In this document: one piece after another, positions 21,900 through 63,828 of the stretch
Position numbering within the stretch: the stretch's first letter is position 1
How the letters are laid out: each line of letters begins with the position of its first letter
Assembly: GCA_016184365.1 (NCBI GenBank)
Contig: JACPCW010000088.1
Coordinates: 12,068 to 76,067, forward strand
Length of the DNA stretch: 64,000 nt
Origin: Candidatus Rokuibacteriota bacterium
GTDB lineage: Bacteria; Methylomirabilota; Methylomirabilia; Rokubacteriales; CSP1-6
Direction of reading: 5' to 3'
The notes under the pieces: model-generated
Databases searched by the model: none
What the model was told of the DNA's origin: nothing
Seen by the model: the letters and a program-made list of their open reading frames with translations, nothing else
Translations under genes and position numbers: made by a program

Positions 21900-22499
21900 C
21901 TACGTTCCGCGTTCCTTCTCGCCGTACGCGAATGCCTCGACGAGGACAGGATCCCGCTTCAGGCGCTCGTCCACTTCGACACCGAGCCCGTTGGCCATGC
22001 GACAACGCAGTGCGTAGTAGGCGGTGACCATCACGATCTCGAAGATCTGCTCGTCGGAGAACCCCGCTTGACGGAGCGTTTCGACATCGTCCTTGGTCGC
22101 CCGGTTCGGGTTCAGCGCAAGGAGCTCGACGTGGGCCAGCATGGCCCGCTCCGCGGGTGCGAGAGGTAGGTCTCGCCAGTTCTGGGCCAGGGTGAGCACC
22201 TGTTCCGTGTCGCCTCCGATGACCTGACGGAGAGCCTCTCCGTGAGCGGTCGTTCAGTAGGCGCAGCGGTGCAGCGCCGAGGTCAGGACGGCGATCATCT
22301 CCTGACGGCGCTTACCCAGGGCACAATGCGGGCCGCGGAGCGCCTGGAGAAGCTCGGCCAGCGCGACCATCACGCGCGGGTTGATGCTCGCGGCCGCAGC
22401 GATGTTCGACACGGAGCCATTCAGTTTCCTGATGGTCGTGTACGCTTCTGCCGCGTCGTCCGTAGCCTCCGCTTCTGGAACGGTCTTGATCCAGGTCAT
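21900..22499 (-). CDS. AhpD-like/carboxymuconolactone decarboxylase family protein with in-frame UGA (candidate selenocysteine, CxxU)
   Basis: Two same-frame ORFs (22254-22505 and 21900-22199) are joined by one TGA at 22254-22256. The read-through gives LHRCAY-U-TTAHGE, matching the family signature CxYCxxxH. GAGGAG Shine-Dalgarno 7 nt before ATG 22499. Confidence 0.7.
22227..22243 (-). promoter_or_regulatory. candidate bacterial SECIS hairpin (17 nt)
   Basis: ACGGAGA-GGC-TCTCCGT begins 10 nt after the UGA. A flanking GACC/GGTC pair could extend the stem. Confidence 0.55.
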
Positions 22500-22551
22500 C
22501 GCCACTCTCCTCGAAATGGGTTCTGGACCGACAATTGGTCGGGACGACCGC

Positions 22552-23238
22552 TCACGTCTTCAGCGCGAGGAGGCCCTCCACGACTTCCGTGAGCGTACGA
22601 CCCCGCACCGTCGGCTCGCCCATCGCCGGCTGGAACGCTGACTCCTCCCGCGAGACCCAGCCGGTGGTGAGGCCGGCGCGACCCGCACCCAGAACGTCCC
22701 AGGCGTGCGCCGCGACGAGCGCCAGCGCGGTCGGCGTGACGTCGAGGACGCGCGCCGCATGGAGGTACACCTCGCGGTGTGGCTTCCAGCGCCTCACCTC
22801 GTCGATCGAGATGATCCGCTCGACGAGGGTGGCCAACTCGGCCCGCTCGAGGAGTCGCCGAGTCGTTTCGGCCGCACCGTTGCTCAGCGCAGCCACGCGT
22901 ATCCCGGCGCCGCGGAGTTGCTCGAAGGCGGGGCGGACATCGGAGTGTGGGGGTAACTCGGAGAATCCCTGGAGGACGGTCGCCGCGCTCGACGCCGGCA
23001 GACCGTGCTCGGCCAGCATCACTTCCAGCGCGCCGCCAGCCACCTGGCGGAACGGCACGTAGCCGCCGGCGGCGTCGAGGGCGAAGGCATCGCGCAGGAA
23101 ACGCGCGAACCACTCGGTCAGCCGGCCGTCCGGCAATCCGGCCTCTCGCATCCTGGCCGCGATCGGATCGAGCGAGAACAGCGTGCCGACGACGTCGAAG
23201 GCGACGACCGCCGGGCGGGTCCGCGGCGCGTGAGCCAT
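22552..23238 (-). CDS. haloacid dehalogenase type II (HAD superfamily)
   Basis: Nucleophile motif AFDVVGTLF (DxxGT type), SNG and WD motifs; 228 aa. Confidence 0.75.
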   Translation of the reverse strand: MAHAPRTRPAVVAFDVVGTLFSLDPIAARMREAGLPDGRLTEWFARFLRDAFALDAAGGYVPFRQVAGGALEVMLAEHGLPASSAATVLQGFSELPPHSDVRPAFEQLRGAGIRVAALSNGAAETTRRLLERAELATLVERIISIDEVRRWKPHREVYLHAARVLDVTPTALALVAAHAWDVLGAGRAGLTTGWVSREESAFQPAMGEPTVRGRTLTEVVEGLLALKT

Positions 23239-23266: not shown

Positions 23267-23620
23267 CTATGCCGGCGACGCGAGCCCGGCGAGCCACGTC
23301 GTCAGCCAGTACAGCGCGGCGTACACGATAACCATCGTGCCGGCGACGAGGCCGATCAATCGCCACTGCTGGCGCGCCCCACGGAGCGAGCACGACTTCC
23401 TCGCCCTGAGGATCACGATGACGCCCGCAACGGCGACCGCCAGTCCGGCAAGCCGAAAGTACCAGCCGTACTCGTAGTAGAGCGTATTGCCCAGACCGAT
23501 CGCGAAACTCACGGTGCCCAGTCCGAGTAGCACGAGGGCGGCAGGGGTGACACAGCAGGCGATGCCGACGAGGCCCGCGATCGCACCGAGGAGAAAGCCG
23601 CCACCCTCCGCGATCCTCAT
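23267..23620 (-). CDS. small CC-motif membrane protein, MerT/MerF-like
   Basis: ATGA overlap with the upstream gene. The first TM carries GIACCVTPAALVLLGLG, comparable to the MerT ACCLGPLVLIALG. There are 3-4 TM segments. Confidence 0.55.
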   Translation of the reverse strand: MRIAEGGGFLLGAIAGLVGIACCVTPAALVLLGLGTVSFAIGLGNTLYYEYGWYFRLAGLAVAVAGVIVILRARKSCSLRGARQQWRLIGLVAGTMVIVYAALYWLTTWLAGLASPA

Positions 23621-24249
23621 GCGCGGAGATCGATCGCCGTGCGGCTCAGGGTCTCCAGCGAGCGATCTTCGAAAGGATCGGCGCCGCCATGGCTTCGACG
23701 ATACTCCTCGATCGTTCGCGCCTTCTCTTCCTGCAGCGTTTCGATCTCGGGACGAAAGGCCTCGAAGGCGAGGTTCACGAAGCGGATGAGCGGCGCGATC
23801 AGCGGCCGCGATCCACCACCCCCGGCCCTCGACATGTCTGCCTCGGCGCGTTGGTCCTCGATCCGGAAGCGTCGCACGTAATTCTTGAGGTTCGGGAGGC
23901 TCTCCTCGGCGTCGCCCACCGCCCACAGGTTCACGGTGAACAGCGCCGTGGGCCAGCCGTCCGGCGCCATCGATATCGCGACCAGGTGGGCCACGCGATC
24001 GGGGAACAGCCGGACGGTGTGGAAATGCCCTGCCTCGTGGTCGGCATTCTCATGGCGATGGTAGTAGAACTGCGAACGCGTGCTCCGGTCGAAGACGCCG
24101 TACTCGCCCGGATAGATCACCCACGGCTCGGGAACCTCGTGGCCGCACAGGCGCTCGACGACGCTGGTGCCTTCCTGCTCGAAGGTCTCGAGCAGTTGCC
24201 GGAGCTCGATAGCAGCCTGCGCAGGAGAGCGTGTCGCCCTGTCGGTCAT
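23617..24249 (-). CDS. hypothetical protein with His-rich YYHRHENADHEAGHFH motif
   Basis: Coherent ~210-aa sequence from MTDRATRS. The start is uncertain because the ORF stays open up to 24462. Confidence 0.6.
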   Translation of the reverse strand: MTDRATRSPAQAAIELRQLLETFEQEGTSVVERLCGHEVPEPWVIYPGEYGVFDRSTRSQFYYHRHENADHEAGHFHTVRLFPDRVAHLVAISMAPDGWPTALFTVNLWAVGDAEESLPNLKNYVRRFRIEDQRAEADMSRAGGGGSRPLIAPLIRFVNLAFEAFRPEIETLQEEKARTIEEYRRSHGGADPFEDRSLETLSRTAIDLRA

Positions 24250-24549: not shown

Positions 24550-25260
24550 CTACTTCTTCTTCGGCCCGGCGGCGCACGGGTTCTTCGCCGCGCACGGATT
24601 CTTGGCCGCGCAGGGGTTCTTGGCGGCGCACGGGTTGACGGGCGCCGCGCCCATCGCCACCGGCTTGACCTTCATCGTGGTGCCGGTGCCGAAGACGTAG
24701 TCGTTGGCCTTGGCCTGCTGATGGCAGGCGGCGCAGAAGTTCGTTGCCTGTCCTGCCTTGCCGCTGCCACTCATCTGGACCGCGCCCTCGGGATCGACGA
24801 TCGCGTAGTGCCAGTCACCGTTGGCGCCGTCGTAGCCCTTCCTGCGCTTCTCCATCACGAAGACGTTGCCCTTCGCCCCCGGCTTGCCGCCCTGCCCCTC
24901 GAAGGACTCCTTGACCAGGACGGCACCGGCCGGGAACGGGAACTTGCCCTGCGTACCTGCGGGCTCGGCTGTCTTGTTCAGGTAGGTGAACACATAGGTG
25001 TTGCCGTGGGTCGCGCTGAGCACCGGCTCGCTGTTGACCTTCTTCCAGTTCTTGTACTGCTTGGCCGCCGCCTGCGCGGCGGGATCCTTCGCGGCAGCGC
25101 TGCCCTTTGCCGCGCACGGGTTCTTCGCAGCACACGGGTTCGCCGCACAGGGGTTCTTGGCGGCGCAGGGGTTGGCCTTGGCCTGAGCGAGCACGTCGGT
25201 CGCGCCACCGGCGACGAGTACGCCAACCACGGCCAGGGCGGTGAACGTCTGTCGGATCAT
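24550..25260 (-). CDS. secreted cytochrome P460-like haem protein flanked by NPCAAK Cys repeats
   Basis: AGGAGGAG Shine-Dalgarno and a signal peptide ending DVLAQA. The central domain contains GDWHY and the haem motif CAACH. It has 4 N-terminal and 4 C-terminal NPCAA(K) units. Confidence 0.8.
   Translation of the reverse strand: MIRQTFTALAVVGVLVAGGATDVLAQAKANPCAAKNPCAANPCAAKNPCAAKGSAAAKDPAAQAAAKQYKNWKKVNSEPVLSATHGNTYVFTYLNKTAEPAGTQGKFPFPAGAVLVKESFEGQGGKPGAKGNVFVMEKRRKGYDGANGDWHYAIVDPEGAVQMSGSGKAGQATNFCAACHQQAKANDYVFGTGTTMKVKPVAMGAAPVNPCAAKNPCAAKNPCAAKNPCAAGPKKK
24568..24636 (-). repeat. coding tandem repeat, about 18-nt unit (NPCAAK x4, C-terminal)
   Basis: GCGCACGGGTTCTTCGCC-like units are visible on the plus strand. 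Confidence 0.9.
25105..25173 (-). repeat. coding tandem repeat (NPCAAK x4, N-terminal of mature protein)
   Basis: Same unit as 24568-24636 and 62988-63146. Confidence 0.9.
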
Positions 25261-52849: not shown

Positions 52850-52878
52850 GAATCGCTCCGGCCTTTCACCCCGTCTTA
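52850..52878 (+). promoter_or_regulatory. ECF-type promoter candidate GAATC-N17-CGTCTTA
   Basis: The -10 ends 13 nt before ATG 52892, and no Shine-Dalgarno lies between them. Confidence 0.6.
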
Positions 52879-52891
52879 CGGGCGACGCCAC

Positions 52892-53554
52892 ATGAAGGTT
52901 GTGCCGATCCTCATCGCCGGTCTCCTCGCGCTCGCCCTCGCCGGCGGGGCCGTGTTCGCCCTCTCCGGTGGCGTGCCGGTTCCCGCGCCGCAGGGCGCGC
53001 TTGCGTCGGAGAGCAAAGGTGGGCCGGCGGGCTCGATGGCCGCGCCAACGGCGTCCCCGCCGCGCGCGGCGCGCACGGGCCCCGTGCTCAGGCTCGACGA
53101 TGCCATTCGAGAGCTCGACCTCATCCGGCCGTCGCGCGAGAAGTTCGCCGACGACTTCACGCTCGCGCTCGCCGACGGCACGCGCTTCCGGCTGAGTGAG
53201 CATCGCGGCAAGGCCGTCCTCGTGAACTTCTGGGCGACGTGGTGTCCGCCGTGCCGCGAGGAGATGCCGGCGATGGAGCGGCTGTATCGCCAGCACAAGG
53301 ACCGCGGCCTCGTCCTCGTGGCGGTGTCCGTGGACGCCGATCCGGCCGTGGTGACGCCGTACCTGCGCGAGAACAAGCTGAGCTTCCCCGTGGCCCTCGA
53401 CCCGAAGATGGACGTGGCCGACACGTACGGGGTGCGCGCGCTGCCCTCGAGCTTCGTCGTGGACCGCGAGGGACGGGTGACCGTCCTCGCCCTCGGCCCG
53501 CGCCGCTGGGACAACGACGCGGCGCACTCGCTCGTGGAAGCGCTCACGCACTGA
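52892..53554 (+). CDS. TlpA/ResA-like membrane-anchored thiol:disulfide oxidoreductase
   Basis: N-terminal anchor, then VLVNFWATWCPPCREEMP and GVRALPSSFVVD motifs. Confidence 0.85.
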   Translation: MKVVPILIAGLLALALAGGAVFALSGGVPVPAPQGALASESKGGPAGSMAAPTASPPRAARTGPVLRLDDAIRELDLIRPSREKFADDFTLALADGTRFRLSEHRGKAVLVNFWATWCPPCREEMPAMERLYRQHKDRGLVLVAVSVDADPAVVTPYLRENKLSFPVALDPKMDVADTYGVRALPSSFVVDREGRVTVLALGPRRWDNDAAHSLVEALTH

Positions 53555-58203: not shown

Positions 58204-59574
58204 ATGGATCGCTACGATTTGCTCGTGATCGGCGGCGGCGCCGCCGGGATCAATGCACTCAAGCAGGGCTTGAAGCTGGGCGCGCGCGTGGCGCTGATCG
58301 ATTCGGGGCCGCTCGGGGGCGCCTGCATCAACCGCGGGTGAATCCCGAAAAAGACCTTGGTAAGGTCTGCGCGAGTTCATCAGCTGGTACGACACGCGGC
58401 CAACTTCGGCACGAAGACCGGCGCGGTGACGCTCGACTGGGACGCGGTCGTTCGTCGCCAGCGCGAGATCGTTCGCGAGCTCCAGCCGCCCCCCGCCGCG
58501 TTCGAGCGCTCGGGCGCCAGGGTCTACCTCGCCGACGCGCGCTTCGTGGACGCCCATACCGTCCGGGCGAACGGCGCGAGCGTCCAGGGCGACAAGATCG
58601 TCATCGCCGCCGGCTCCGAGCCCGTGGTGCCGGCGGTGGCCGGGCGCGACCTTGCGATCACCTCCGACGAGATCCTCTTCCTGCCGACGTTCCCCGAGAG
58701 CCTGGTGCTGGTGGGCGCCGGCGTCATCGGGCTGGAGATGGCGGGCGCCTTCGCCGACCTCGGCTCGCGCGTGACCGTGATCGGCCGCGACCCTGAAATC
58801 CTACCGGCGTTCGACCGCGATGTCGCCGCCTACATCCGGACGATCCTCGAGGGCCGGGGCGTGACCTTCTACCTCGGCGCGTCGCTCGAGCGGCTCTCGG
58901 GCACGACCGGCGCAGTGACGGCCCACGTCAAGCGGGACGGTCGCGAGCTCGTGGTCACCGCGGCGCAGGTCTGTCTCGCGGTCGGCCGGCGCTACAACCC
59001 GAAGCGCCTGGGGACCGACGCGCTCGGCCTGGTGATGGGGCGGCTCGGCCTCCGCGTGAGCGAGCACCTCAGGACGTCGCTCCCCCACATCTACGCGGCG
59101 GGCGACGCGGCCGGCAACCAGCAACTCACGCCGACCGCGGCGTACGAGGGGAAGCTCGCCGCGCTGAACGCGCTCAAGGGTGACGTCGCCCGTCCCGACT
59201 ACAGCGTCGTGCCGCAGACGATCTTCACCACGCCCGAGATCGGCGGGGTCGGTCTCACCCACGCCGAGGCGCTCGCCCGCGGGGTGAAGTGCCACGTCGC
59301 CACGCACGACATGCGTGGCGCCTCCAACGGGAGGGCCACCGGGGAAGACGCGGGCTATCTCAAGCTCGTGTTCGACGGGGCGACGGAGAAGGTCCTCGGC
59401 GTCCAGATGGTTTCCTACGCCGCCGCCGAACTGATCCAGCTCGCCGCCCTCGCCATCAGGACCGGCGCCGATGCGCACCTCTTGTCGAGCCAGCTCTCGA
59501 TCCACCCGAGCCACGGCGAGCGGTTGATCAAGGTCTTCGGCCACGAGCACCACGAGGTCTGCGAGCCCGAATAG
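58204..59574 (+). CDS. class I pyridine nucleotide-disulfide oxidoreductase (dihydrolipoamide dehydrogenase/mercuric reductase-like) with in-frame UGA at the second active-site Cys (candidate CxxxxU selenoprotein)
   Basis: GGAGGT Shine-Dalgarno. MDRYDLLVIGGGAAG..LGGACINRG-TGA-IPKKTL aligns with the family signature GGxCxNxGCxPxK. The TGA at 58339-58341 is in frame with the 405-aa ORF 58357-59574. Confidence 0.7.
58352..58368 (+). promoter_or_regulatory. candidate bacterial SECIS hairpin (17 nt)
   Basis: AGACCTT-GGT-AAGGTCT begins 10 nt after the UGA. Confidence 0.55.
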
Positions 59575-62308: not shown

Positions 62309-62665
62309 CTACCGAGCCGTCCAGCGCACCGTCTTCTCGTCGGACGTGAGGACGACTTCGGGCTCTCCGTCGAGGACGCCGATCATCACTCGCGTGGTGC
62401 CGTTCTTGTCGTTGAGTTCCATCATGGGCCGCCCATCACCGGCGAGGCCGAATGACGCGTAAGGCGTCCCGTGCCCATCGACCACGACGAATCGCTGCGC
62501 CGCGACGACGGGAGGACCCGATGGCCCGAGCCCCATGAACAGCAGCAGAGCGGCAACCAGGACAGACAGCGTTCCGAACGCCCTCCACAAGCGTATCTGC
62601 CGCTCGAGTCGGTCGAGGCGTTCCATCACGGCATCGGTGATCGGCGCTCGCATGATGTTCTCCAT
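62309..62665 (-). CDS. membrane-anchored hypothetical protein
   Basis: 118 aa: a short helix LDRLERQIRLW, one TM, then a beta-rich domain. Confidence 0.55.
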   Translation of the reverse strand: MENIMRAPITDAVMERLDRLERQIRLWRAFGTLSVLVAALLLFMGLGPSGPPVVAAQRFVVVDGHGTPYASFGLAGDGRPMMELNDKNGTTRVMIGVLDGEPEVVLTSDEKTVRWTAR

Positions 62666-62708: not shown

Positions 62709-62737
62709 TAAGACGGGTGGGACTGCGAGCAGGATTC
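62709..62737 (-). promoter_or_regulatory. ECF-type promoter candidate GAATC-N17-CGTCTTA
   Basis: The plus strand reads TAAGACG-N17-GATTC. About 44 nt upstream of ATG 62665. Confidence 0.6.
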
Positions 62738-62755: not shown

Positions 62756-62784
62756 GAATCGTTCCTGCCACCGCGTCCGTCCTA
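62756..62784 (+). promoter_or_regulatory. ECF-type promoter candidate GAATC-N17-CGTCCTA
   Basis: Back-to-back with 62709-62737. About 120 nt upstream of ATG 62904. Confidence 0.55.
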
Positions 62785-62903
62785 TAGCCGACCCATGGCT
62801 CCACCCGCCTTGCCCTCGAGCAACGTGTGGCACATCGTGCCCCGGCCCGGCGGGACTGGACCGATTCGCCTCCGAGACGGAGGACGGAAAGGAGGTGAAC
62901 CGA

Positions 62904-63170
62904 ATGATCCCCAAGCTCGTCACGGCGGCATCGGTTGCTGCTCTGCTGACGCTGGCCGCGGGCACGGACGCGATGGCGCAGAAAGCCAACCCGTGTGCCG
63001 CGAAGAACCCGTGTGCAGCCAATCCTTGCGCGGCGAAGAACCCGTGTGCGGCCAAGAACCCGTGCGCGGCGAAGAACCCGTGCGCGGCGAAGAACCCGTG
63101 CGCGGCCAAGAACCCGTGTGCGGCGAAGAACCCGTGCGCGGCGAAGAACCCGGCCAAGAAGAAGTGGTAG
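62904..63170 (+). CDS. secreted NPCAAK-repeat protein (9 Cys units)
   Basis: GGAGGTG Shine-Dalgarno 6 nt before the ATG and a signal peptide ending TDAMAQ. The mature part is almost entirely (NPCAAK)n, ending NPAKKKW. Confidence 0.75.
   Translation: MIPKLVTAASVAALLTLAAGTDAMAQKANPCAAKNPCAANPCAAKNPCAAKNPCAAKNPCAAKNPCAAKNPCAAKNPCAAKNPAKKKW
62988..63146 (+). repeat. coding tandem repeat, 18-nt unit AACCCGTGYGCGGCSAAG x9
   Basis: Directly visible in the sequence. One unit lacks a codon (NPCAA). Confidence 0.95.
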
Positions 63171-63449
63171 CGCGCTGTTGATGCGCTCTGATGGGGCCGT
63201 CCGCTCGAGGGCGGCCCCGCCCCTCCGACGTCGACGGCGGGGTTTGCGCTCGCGCGGACAGGGCCACCGTCGGGCAGATCCACGACGCGGCTGATCCCGC
63301 ATCCGAGCACGCGTCTGAGGGACGGTAAGTCGCGACGCGCGTGCGCGCCCGCTGTAGTCAGCGCATACCAAGCGGACCTCGTCATCGACGCCACCGACGT
63401 CCGGTCGCGGCGTGACGAGGTTCCGCGAAGACTCCAACGAGAGGGAACG

Positions 63450-63557
63450 ATGCGACGCGAGACGGTCTTGCTGCTGCAGGGCGGCGGTGCGCTGGGGGCC
63501 TACGAGTGTGGCGTTTACAAAGCCGCACTCAAGGTGACTGGACTGGCGCGAACGTGA
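63450..63557 (+). pseudogene. patatin-like phospholipase N-terminal fragment (35 aa)
   Basis: MRRETVLLLQGGGALGAYECGVYKAAL carries the GGGxxG oxyanion motif. It stops after 35 codons and overlaps the convergent gene. Confidence 0.5.
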
Positions 63558-63828
63558 ACGAGTGCACGGTCACTCCGAACGCCGCGCCTCCCGCGGGCAC
63601 CGAGACCACGAAGTAGCCACGGCCGCCGGGCGGAACCTCACCAGCGACCGTGGCGTGCGTGTCACCCATCGGCTCGCCGGACGCGTCGAAGATCTCCACG
63701 CGGACATGAACGTCCGTGATCGGATGGCGGTAGTGGTTATGGATGTAGCCAGCGATGACGTGCCTCTGCCCCTCCACCCGGGGCTGCCACTCCATCCGGA
63801 AGAAGTGCTCTCGAGGAACGGAAATCAA
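63529..63828 (-). CDS. exported beta-sandwich-like hypothetical protein (paralog of 49386-49745)
   Basis: GYIHNHY..VHVRVEIFDASGEP..GYFVVSVP. The in-frame upstream extension encodes a signal peptide (RRTRPLVAALLALILFGASETHG) but has no ATG/GTG/TTG start. A CTG lies at 63930. Confidence 0.6.
   Translation of the reverse strand: MISVPREHFFRMEWQPRVEGQRHVIAGYIHNHYRHPITDVHVRVEIFDASGEPMGDTHATVAGEVPPGGRGYFVVSVPAGGAAFGVTVHSFTFAPVQSP

Follow-up and report, generated by a model that had tools for sequence, protein, structure and literature searches.

A widespread N-P-C cysteine repeat, stand-alone or attached to haem proteins, as a candidate periplasmic thiolate arm

What could be the role of a small, apparently exported protein that consists of little more than one cysteine-containing hexapeptide? 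This question is raised by a gene located at positions 62904–63170 (forward strand) of a 64,000-nucleotide stretch of DNA from a Candidatus Rokuibacteriota bacterium (contig JACPCW010000088.1, positions 12,068 to 76,067; 69% GC), hereafter referred to as the window. The gene codes for tandem copies of the peptide NPCAAK, and repeats built on the same N-P-C core (NPC repeats) were found to constitute a widespread module that has no name in the libraries and literature searched. Several functions were weighed, and the one that we favour, tentatively, is that of a row of periplasmic thiolates that would capture a soft metal.

A preliminary description of this DNA had reported an open reading frame (ORF) with nine cysteines, encoded by an 18-nt tandem repeat and preceded by a Shine-Dalgarno sequence, and all these elements were borne out by the sequence and by Tandem Repeats Finder. 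The coding sequence starts with the ATG at 62904 and specifies 88 amino acids plus the stop codon; the Shine-Dalgarno sequence AGGAGG (62890–62895, forward strand) lies 8 nt ahead of it. The product has the layout MIPKLVTAASVAALLTLAAGTDAMAQ-KA-(NPCAAK)(NPCAA)(NPCAAK)x7-NPAKKKW. Its N-terminus (MIPKLVTAASVAALLTLAAGTDAMA, 62904–62978) was recognized by eye as a Sec-type signal peptide, with K4, a hydrophobic core and A-M-A preceding Q26, before which cleavage is predicted. Homologues carry equivalent signal-like N-termini, some of them with a lipobox, in agreement with the secretion proposed earlier, and we infer that the protein is exported by Sec and is periplasmic. The array (62988–63146) comprises nine N-P-C units, eight NPCAAK and one NPCAA, with cysteines at residues 31, 37, 42, 48, 54, 60, 66, 72 and 78, that is, at a spacing of 6 with a single exception of 5. 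Tandem Repeats Finder returned a period of 18 nt and 9.3 copies (62988–63152, score 232), and the units differ from each other in synonymous third positions only. A degenerate final unit with a basic tail, NPAKKKW (63147–63167), closes the protein, and stand-alone homologues have comparable C-terminal ends (KK, KKKW, KKY or KKM). The mature protein has approximately 63 residues, including nine cysteines (about 15%), 12 lysines and no acidic residue. An AlphaFold2 model obtained with a 47-sequence alignment (predicted local distance difference test, pLDDT, 49) contained no secondary structure, and the protein is predicted to be intrinsically disordered. Past the stop codon, two GC-rich hairpins form a likely terminator (63193–63243, forward strand; -46.7 kcal/mol, z = -3.15); a scan for consensus terminators found none. 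Pfam and NCBIfam searches with the protein matched no family, exact-sequence look-up with either start codon returned no record, and full-text literature searches for repeat fragments retrieved no paper mentioning the NPCAAK repeat, in line with the preliminary description, which had not recognized a named family in it.

The preliminary description had also considered that the repeat might be an artefact confined to this assembly. This was ruled out by an independent orthologue on a groundwater metagenome-assembled genome (MAG) contig (L004), located in a syntenic 1.1-kb block with approximately 85% DNA identity (mean column identity of 91% in a 600-nt alignment centred on the gene). Comparison of both ORFs by codons revealed 65 identical codons and 16 synonymous and 3 non-synonymous differences, one of the latter changing Cys to Tyr, together with a 4-codon indel at the array end. 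The NPCAAK peptide is spelled with differing codons in genomes of 36–70% GC, and the repeat cysteines are kept across phyla. Since the codons differ among genomes, the repeat is not an assembly artefact, and selection acts on the peptide and not on the DNA repeat. The NPCAAK coding frame is under purifying selection.

The database search for the repeat suggested in the preliminary description was carried out, and it revealed a widespread module and not a one-off. A word-indexed search of 5.8 billion proteins retrieved 374 relatives, a HMMER search of 1.84 billion cluster representatives retrieved 350 at E <= 1e-3, and no fewer than 524 NPC-repeat loci were confirmed when each GTDB species was represented by one genome. 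Carriers were found in Rokubacteria/Methylomirabilota, Nitrospinota, Nitrosomonas, Binatia and Tectimicrobiota, in many Beta- and Gammaproteobacteria (Stutzerimonas stutzeri, Azoarcus, Aromatoleum, Comamonadaceae, Gallionella, Motiliproteus, Psychromonas and tubeworm endosymbionts), in Terasakiella and in the cyanobacterium Acaryochloris marina. The nearest relatives, signal peptide included, came from Rokubacteria MAGs (70–79% identity). In 202 proteins the unit was C-A-A-K-N-P, with N in 93%, P in 98% and K in 83% of the positions, and the distance between cysteines was 6 (1208 cases), 5 (248, CAANP) or 3 (187, CNP). Stand-alone NPC proteins contained 4–15 cysteines, odd numbers being as common as even ones. 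Since spacing and number vary, N-P-C appears to be the invariant core and each unit an independent thiol site, which argues against a fixed disulfide ladder or a cluster of fixed geometry. The family comprises proteins with at least four tandem N-P-C units at spacings of 6, 5 or 3, and the window protein has nine; at the genome level the family is marked by DUF6969, an NPC-tailed haem protein or both, and the window has both (see below). As a side observation, four independent short-read assemblies (L089–L092) contained a DUF6969 gene identical to that of the window, and their contigs all broke off approximately 340–350 bp upstream of this gene, close to the point at which the P460 fusion's NPC repeat starts. 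The repeat probably fragments short-read assemblies, and the family is likely under-counted in metagenomes.

Translation of repeat-containing ORFs, completed with later look-ups, revealed that the stand-alone form (signal peptide, repeat and basic tail) is one of several architectures. The commonest consists of a monohaem cytochrome c of about 110 amino acids with a repeat on each side. In others, the repeats flank a cytochrome P460 or a small beta domain, are joined to a YHS (seleno)protein domain (NF041384, E 7e-46), or form a tail on another cytochrome c or on a BufA1/DUF2282 bufferin precursor. In Acaryochloris, the repeat and the YHS domain are encoded by separate adjacent genes. The NPC-flanked cytochrome c, named in the sources just "cytochrome c" or "cytochrome c peroxidase", accounted for 835 protein clusters at E <= 1e-10, with NPC units in 117 of the 119 top members; a protein search against a plasmid collection gave a single partial match, without annotation. 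Its haem domain matched PF21342 (SoxA-TsdA_cyt-c), weakly TIGR04484 (SoxA), and also the CCP/MauG peroxidase family. The corresponding profile could be aligned from end to end with the haem domain at the N-terminus of Rhodovulum SoxA (1h31_A, E 1.4e-4), and an invariant cysteine located 38–41 residues past CxxCH fell on SoxA Cys114, which we take to be the axial ligand of the aligned haem. Because of this coincidence, the haem of the NPC-flanked cytochrome is likely His/Cys-ligated. NPC tails were also observed on two further small periplasmic domains lacking a Pfam family (L095, 5896–6369; L019/L030/P0361), one of 100 amino acids that contains cysteine (VCWLTMGLKGEGHRECAIGCDK...) and the other a 70-residue beta domain with repeats on both sides.

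BLAST of the related loci against the window identified a second NPC gene, which had escaped the preliminary description together with the DUF6969 and MerT-like genes downstream of it. The gene (24550–25260, reverse strand) is preceded by AGGAGG with 8-nt spacing, as the NPCAAK gene is, and codes for a signal peptide, four NPC units, a cytochrome P460 domain (PF16694, E 2.4e-18), four further NPC units and the ending GPKKK. Downstream on the same strand lie the gene for DUF6969 (23617–24249; 210 amino acids, no signal peptide), a gene for a 117-residue protein with three transmembrane segments (23267–23620), with a 4-nt overlap between its start and the DUF6969 stop, and a HAD hydrolase gene (22552–23238). 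The three-transmembrane protein contains a GIACC motif with the cysteine pair in the first transmembrane segment and, with two homologues, gave full-length weak matches to MerT (E 0.003–0.2 in Pfam, 2e-4 to 0.3 in NCBIfam). All these matches were below the curated cut-offs, and the protein is referred to as MerT-like only. In Rokubacteria relatives these parts lie in clusters: in L005 a stand-alone NPC gene adjoins a P460 fusion, with DUF6969 and DUF3179 nearby.

DUF6969 has invariant residues H64, H66, E72, H77 and H88 and no conserved cysteine. Its AlphaFold2 model was confident (pLDDT 84.7; predicted template modelling score 0.86), and a Foldseek search of the PDB with it gave no significant match (best E 0.025, template modelling score below 0.2), so that assignment to cupins or to an enzyme class found no support. 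DUF6969 is probably a cytoplasmic metalloprotein of no assigned activity. Full-text literature searches for DUF6969/PF22308 returned nothing relevant, and the searched supplements of the MNIO landscape paper contained neither NPC strings nor DUF6969.

For the analysis of gene neighbourhoods, the ORFs around 80 loci were clustered and seed sequences were then searched in 84–88 loci; the figures given here and below are raw numbers of loci with a family within 10 kb, to be read without a measured genomic background. The most frequent neighbour identified was DUF6969 (45/84), followed by the NPC-flanked SoxA-like cytochrome (44 loci). DUF6969 accompanied the repeat whether its carrier was the SoxA-like cytochrome c, P460, BufA1 or none, and reciprocal sampling starting from DUF6969 recovered NPC genes beside it. 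In one locus (L095) NPC genes flank DUF6969 on both sides, in the company of MerT-like, DUF3179, thioredoxin, YtkA and CopA-type ATPase genes. Another (L097) contains ECF/zf-HC2 regulators, DUF3179, DUF6969, MerT-like, DUF547, MerR with a CopA-type ATPase, and DUF302 with a multihaem cytochrome. A complete bufferin-1 cluster, with its own BufA1, was present in 3 of 88 loci. The Methylohalobius locus (L093) starts with DJ-1 and DUF6969, followed by BufA1 with an NPC tail, MNIO, DUF2063 and DoxX; the order in L039 is NPC lipoprotein, DUF6969, BufA1, MNIO, DUF2063 and DoxX; and in L057 the same genes as in L039 lie close together. To our knowledge, and by our own estimate of their rarity, DUF6969 and bufferin clusters are too rare for this presence to be due to chance.

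Less frequent neighbours were a c554-like multihaem cytochrome (15 loci), DUF547 (7/88) and patatin (6 loci). The patatin-like genes of these six other loci are full-length, and a truncated patatin-like ORF of 35 amino acids (MRRETVLLLQGGGALGAYECGVYK..., 63451–63558, forward strand) lies directly 3' of the NPCAAK gene. A periplasmic protein of approximately 155 amino acids (...GEYIFRVSNRNVSYPLGFWLRG...YSCPLNPTPDY...; 13–15 loci), without a Pfam or NCBIfam family and cupredoxin-like by eye, often adjoins NPC genes, the multihaem cytochrome and YeeE (for instance L001, 7229–7687; L088, 7326–7793; L040, 1876–2337). FGE-sulfatase neighbours were considered as cysteine-modifying partners and dropped, at least one of them being EgtB beside EgtD, of ergothioneine synthesis; in a Tectimicrobiota locus (L086, 8610–10497) an FGE-sulfatase gene is paired with Methyltransf_33 (EgtD-like) and looks like such an EgtB/EgtD pair.

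Based on these data, we propose, with a rough probability of 0.4, that the NPC repeat is a poly-thiolate periplasmic arm that captures thiophilic species, a Cu(I)-like metal being the first candidate and sulfane sulfur the next. The stand-alone protein would be the free form of the module and the functional unit a single N-P-C cysteine, mostly with one lysine beside it. The cysteines would form a row of reactive periplasmic thiolates holding a soft metal, most likely Cu(I), with Hg(II) or Ag(I) also possible, and the arm would buffer this ligand or pass it to partners bearing the same arms, in the window the NPC-P460-NPC haem protein. Onward recipients may be the MerT-like membrane protein and the cytoplasmic, His-rich DUF6969, and a TlpA-like reductase that shares the promoter motif of the NPCAAK gene may keep the thiols reduced. 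Of the three roles suggested in the preliminary description, the periplasmic thiol or metal buffer was thus the best supported, as a function deduced from sequence. The disulfide-crosslinked envelope polymer gained no support, as the repeat tails soluble haem proteins and the number and parity of cysteines are unconstrained.

A soft metal was ranked highest as ligand because the repeat is fused or adjacent to bufferins, which chelate periplasmic copper (PMC12452194). It was also ranked highest because of the YHS-domain fusions and because of CopA-type P1B ATPases (4/88 loci, and a truncated one at the L097 contig end identified with Pfam) and MerR-family regulators (9/88) among the neighbours. 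A further reason was that the MerT-like protein, DUF6969 and a MerA-like reductase together recall a MerP-MerT-MerA relay in their layout. The MerA-like reductase, a class I pyridine-nucleotide disulfide oxidoreductase of the MerA/Lpd type, is encoded in the window at 58204–59574 (forward strand), 3.3 kb upstream of the NPCAAK gene, and enzymes of this class were encoded near NPC genes in 15 of the 84 loci. The lysine-to-cysteine ratio of roughly one also contributed to the ranking: about one lysine per cysteine would balance thiolate charge, as in metallothioneins, and the mature window protein would be near neutral if all its cysteines were thiolates.

Several points weigh against this proposal. 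There are no cop, cus or mer genes in the immediate surroundings of the stand-alone NPCAAK gene, the bufferin link concerns just 3 of 88 loci, the scores behind the MerT-like assignment do not reach the family cut-offs, and the neighbour counts are raw. Periplasmic copper proteins usually use methionine and histidine, and free thiols are prone to oxidation by DsbA. The density of cysteines and their even spacing are unlike those of metallothioneins. Finally, the repeat is most often fused to a haem domain of the SoxA/TsdA type, and YeeE/SoxT-like transporters (17/84) and DUF302 (18/84) are as frequent as metal genes, both of which point to sulfur.

These sulfur-related partners could alternatively be explained if the N-P-C cysteines carried sulfane sulfur or thiosulfate (Cys-S-S(n), Cys-S-SO3-), loaded oxidatively by the SoxA-like His/Cys haem, in the way that SoxAX charges the swinging arm of SoxY, and passed to a YeeE/SoxT-type importer, the stand-alone protein being a multi-site analogue of SoxY. 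The SoxA matches and the cysteine on SoxA Cys114 speak for this explanation, DUF302 has been found in sox clusters (PMC5037610), and a YeeE-like protein, SoxT, is reported to import sulfur (PMC11582611). In Motiliproteus the YeeE gene is followed by a cysteine-desulfurase-like gene, the family is present in tubeworm symbionts, Sedimenticolaceae and Gallionella, and in Rokubacteria relatives (L008, L010, L011 and L025) the gene for the NPC-SoxA-like cytochrome comes immediately after the stand-alone one. However, the window contains no YeeE, DUF302 or SoxA-like gene, the partner there being P460, and DUF6969 offers no conserved cysteine for a sulfur relay. The BufA1 and YHS fusions and the CopA and MerR neighbours fit metals better, many carriers are not known sulfur oxidizers, and the SoxA haem aligned with the NPC-cytochrome is presumably the non-catalytic one. 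A sulfur-carrier function is the main rival of the metal proposal, and we regard it as doubtful.

The preliminary description had further proposed that the protein is a substrate of a co-regulated TlpA-like reductase. In this case, the repeat would be a periplasmic thiol redox buffer or sacrificial antioxidant, a protein-bound stand-in for glutathione, oxidized by H2O2, HOCl, NO-derived species or the attached haem and re-reduced by a TlpA-like/CcdA pathway. Co-regulation was suggested by a putative promoter motif of the extracytoplasmic function (ECF) type, GAATCG-N16-CGTCCTA, located upstream of the NPCAAK gene (62756–62784, forward strand), with a second copy 13 nt before the ATG (52850–52878, forward strand) of a gene for a membrane-anchored TlpA/ResA-like thiol-disulfide oxidoreductase with a WCPPC active site (52892–53554, forward strand). 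A third copy, with one mismatch (62709–62737, reverse strand), faces a divergent gene (62309–62665, reverse strand) for a 118-residue protein with an N-terminal membrane anchor and no family, whose single homologue found, in L004, is 88% identical; this gene is probably co-regulated with the NPCAAK gene. The form GAATCG-N16-CGTCYTA thus occurs at three window sites versus 0.14 expected, a number reached in 0 of 100 shuffles, and the NPCAAK copy is conserved in L004. At the level of the motif, this speaks for the ECF-type promoter described earlier. The shared motif also supports TlpA co-regulation, although the TlpA-like gene is 9 kb away and the motif is the sole basis for that link. Moreover, the motif is not general across lineages: it was present in 3 of 76 upstream regions, which is near the background rate of 1.6%.

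Other data fit a redox buffer as well: the neighbours include TlpA-like redoxins (8 loci), thioredoxin and CcdA, AhpD/CMD (10 loci), DUF3179 (18 loci; listed in the literature as a selenoprotein family), ECF sigma factors (25 loci) and zf-HC2 anti-sigma factors (14 loci); the cytochrome domain matches a peroxidase family; and the parity of cysteines is unconstrained. However, this function leaves unexplained the tight link to cytoplasmic DUF6969, to MerT-like proteins, bufferin clusters and CopA, and a plain thiol sink needs no strict N-P-C context, so that we consider it unlikely.

Two of the redox genes in the window showed an additional feature. The MerA/Lpd-like reductase gene has an in-frame TGA (58339–58341; GGACINRG-TGA-IPKK) in place of the second cysteine codon of its CxxxxC motif, likely specifying selenocysteine, and a 7-bp hairpin starts 13 nt after it. 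A second likely selenoprotein, similar to AhpD/carboxymuconolactone decarboxylases (21900–22505, reverse strand), has an in-frame TGA (22254–22256; ...HRCAY-TGA-TTAHGE) in a CxxU motif, with a hairpin 13 nt past it. Since both genes combine an in-frame UGA with a hairpin at equal distance, the organism probably decodes selenocysteine.

The association with DUF6969 could also mean that this protein modifies the cysteine, or the asparagine, of N-P-C before export by Sec, as MNIO enzymes do for bufferins, an explanation compatible with metal capture. DUF6969 accompanies the repeat on SoxA-like cytochrome c, P460, BufA1 or no domain at all, and reciprocal sampling confirmed the association; it has invariant His and Glu residues, no signal peptide, and a confident model without a significant PDB match. 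Enzyme recognition sites typically combine a strict motif with free spacing, and Cys peptides that are modified in the cytoplasm and then exported by Sec have a precedent (PMC12452194). Catalysis by DUF6969 is, however, an assumption, and a role of the protein as sensor, chaperone or metal acceptor is just as conceivable; just 45 of 84 loci have it within 10 kb, and L039 and L093 already possess a bona fide MNIO that could perform a modification. Modification by DUF6969 seems rather improbable. A broader version, which would make DUF6969 part of a new widespread envelope system of modified poly-Cys arms, recognizing N-P-C and modifying or loading the units before export, is speculative and was given little more than a slim chance; in such a system the arms, free or joined to His/Cys haem, P460, YHS and bufferin domains, would couple haem redox to capture of the thiophilic ligand, for example in a haem-dependent, oxygen-independent handling of Cu(I) or sulfane sulfur in low-oxygen habitats. 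These considerations also bear on the earlier observation that no maturase for ribosomally synthesized peptides with post-translational modifications (RiPPs) adjoins the NPCAAK gene. No such maturase is adjacent in the window, which ends 830 nt downstream of the gene, although the RiPP-like question is not settled by this, given that DUF6969, and in three loci a full bufferin/MNIO cluster, travels with the repeat. The resemblance to SCIFF peptides had been rejected in the preliminary description, rightly so, as no radical-SAM/SPASM maturase adjoins the gene in the window or was found among the conserved neighbour clusters of the 80–88 loci.

Four further options are very improbable even jointly, and least of all do we expect them to hold: that the repeat arose in assembly, that it is a linker of low complexity without a function, that it forms an envelope polymer crosslinked by disulfides, or that it is the precursor of a multi-core RiPP or of an antimicrobial peptide. 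In their favour, the low-complexity sequence is cationic, the repeat interrupts short-read contigs, and every unit ends in a lysine at which a protease could release hexapeptides. Against them, independent assemblies contain the same gene with mostly synonymous changes, the cysteines are conserved across phyla and codon usages, the repeat flanks folded haem domains on both sides, which is unexpected for a RiPP core or an antimicrobial peptide, and the recurrent neighbour families of 84–88 loci include no conserved protease, maturase or radical-SAM partner and no sortase-like or envelope-anchoring genes.

Should the poly-thiolate arm be confirmed, hundreds of bacterial species, among them nitrifiers, denitrifiers, iron and sulfur oxidizers, animal symbionts, cyanobacteria and Rokubacteria, would possess an unrecognized Cys-based periplasmic module. 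It would add a thiolate layer to the handling of metals and sulfur in the envelope, which is usually told in terms of Met and His for copper and of SoxYZ for sulfur. It would also give a first clue to what DUF6969, the NPC-flanked SoxA-like cytochrome and the tailed P460 paralogues do, and tie all three to the recently described copper-chelating bufferins. Cultivated carriers exist (Stutzerimonas stutzeri, Aromatoleum tolulyticum, Acaryochloris marina and Terasakiella), which makes the family easy to test.

Among known systems, the closest are the bufferins and oxazolins (Buf1/DUF2282, Buf2 and Buf_EGKCG), Cys peptides that MNIO enzymes modify, that leave the cytoplasm by Sec and that act as chelators of periplasmic copper (PMC12452194, PMC11252979). 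They share with NPC proteins the Sec signal peptide, the short periplasmic product and a function residing in cysteines, and oxazolins, too, have a short Cys motif, EGKCG, whose copy number varies. NPC genes adjoin or are fused to BufA1 clusters in three loci, and ECF sigma factors are frequent neighbours of both. In contrast, the NPC motif is NPCAAK and not EGKCG, the window protein has no DUF2282 or Buf2 domain and no Pfam or NCBIfam match, the characteristic partner is DUF6969, and the repeat is mostly found on haem proteins. Oxazolins were reported to form a beta-helix, whereas the NPC repeat is predicted by AlphaFold to be disordered. BLAST seeds for MNIO (DUF692), DUF2063, DoxX and BufA1 found none of these among the window ORFs, the genes beside the NPCAAK gene are unrelated to them, and 85 of 88 related loci had no MNIO, DUF2063 or DoxX gene either. 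Identity of the NPC repeat with a "CxxxxC" MNIO precursor family was considered and could not be established from the literature.

The proposed layout of periplasmic Cys binder, three-transmembrane protein with a cysteine pair in its first segment and cytoplasmic class I reductase is similar to that of MerP-MerT-MerA. However, the NPC protein lacks the HMA fold and the MxCxxC motif, has no PF00403 match and is predicted to be disordered, there is no MerR in the window, and mer operons contain nothing that corresponds to DUF6969 or to the haem partners. With SoxY and SoxAX it shares a flexible peptide with reactive cysteine next to a His/Cys SoxA-type haem, and YeeE/SoxT and DUF302 neighbours. 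SoxY has one cysteine, in a C-terminal GGCGG on a folded immunoglobulin-like protein bound to SoxZ, whereas NPC proteins have 4–20 cysteines, all within N-P-C units of a chain for which disorder is predicted, and soxYZB genes were not observed. In particular, the NPCAAK protein ends in NPAKKKW, matches neither SoxY nor SoxZ families and has no folded domain in its AlphaFold2 model. Nor did it match Hexapep, the family of left-handed beta-helix hexapeptides, and the same model contained no strands.

Metallothioneins and Csp copper-storage proteins are Cys- and Lys-rich like the NPC protein; metallothioneins are disordered without metal, and Csp1 is an exported, Cys-based store of Cu(I). The dissimilarity in spacing to metallothioneins pointed out in the preliminary description was confirmed: these are cytoplasmic, with about 30% cysteine in CxC, CxxC or CC clusters, whereas the NPC protein has a signal-like N-terminus and a regular spacing of 6 between its nine cysteines, in a mature chain of approximately 63 residues. 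Unlike the NPC protein, which is predicted to be unfolded, Csp proteins form bundles of four helices. Finally, the Met-rich Cu(I) segments of CueO, PcoE and CopA-type multicopper oxidases are likewise flexible, low-complexity and ligand-rich segments on a periplasmic redox enzyme, where they would supply or buffer a soft metal, but they use Met and His instead of Cys and are attached to multicopper oxidases and not to c-type haem domains. Taken together, the general kind of protein, a secreted Cys-based periplasmic binder, is already known from bufferins, oxazolins, MerP and Csp1; new with respect to the libraries and literature searched are the NPC repeat itself, its attachment to haem domains and its partner DUF6969.

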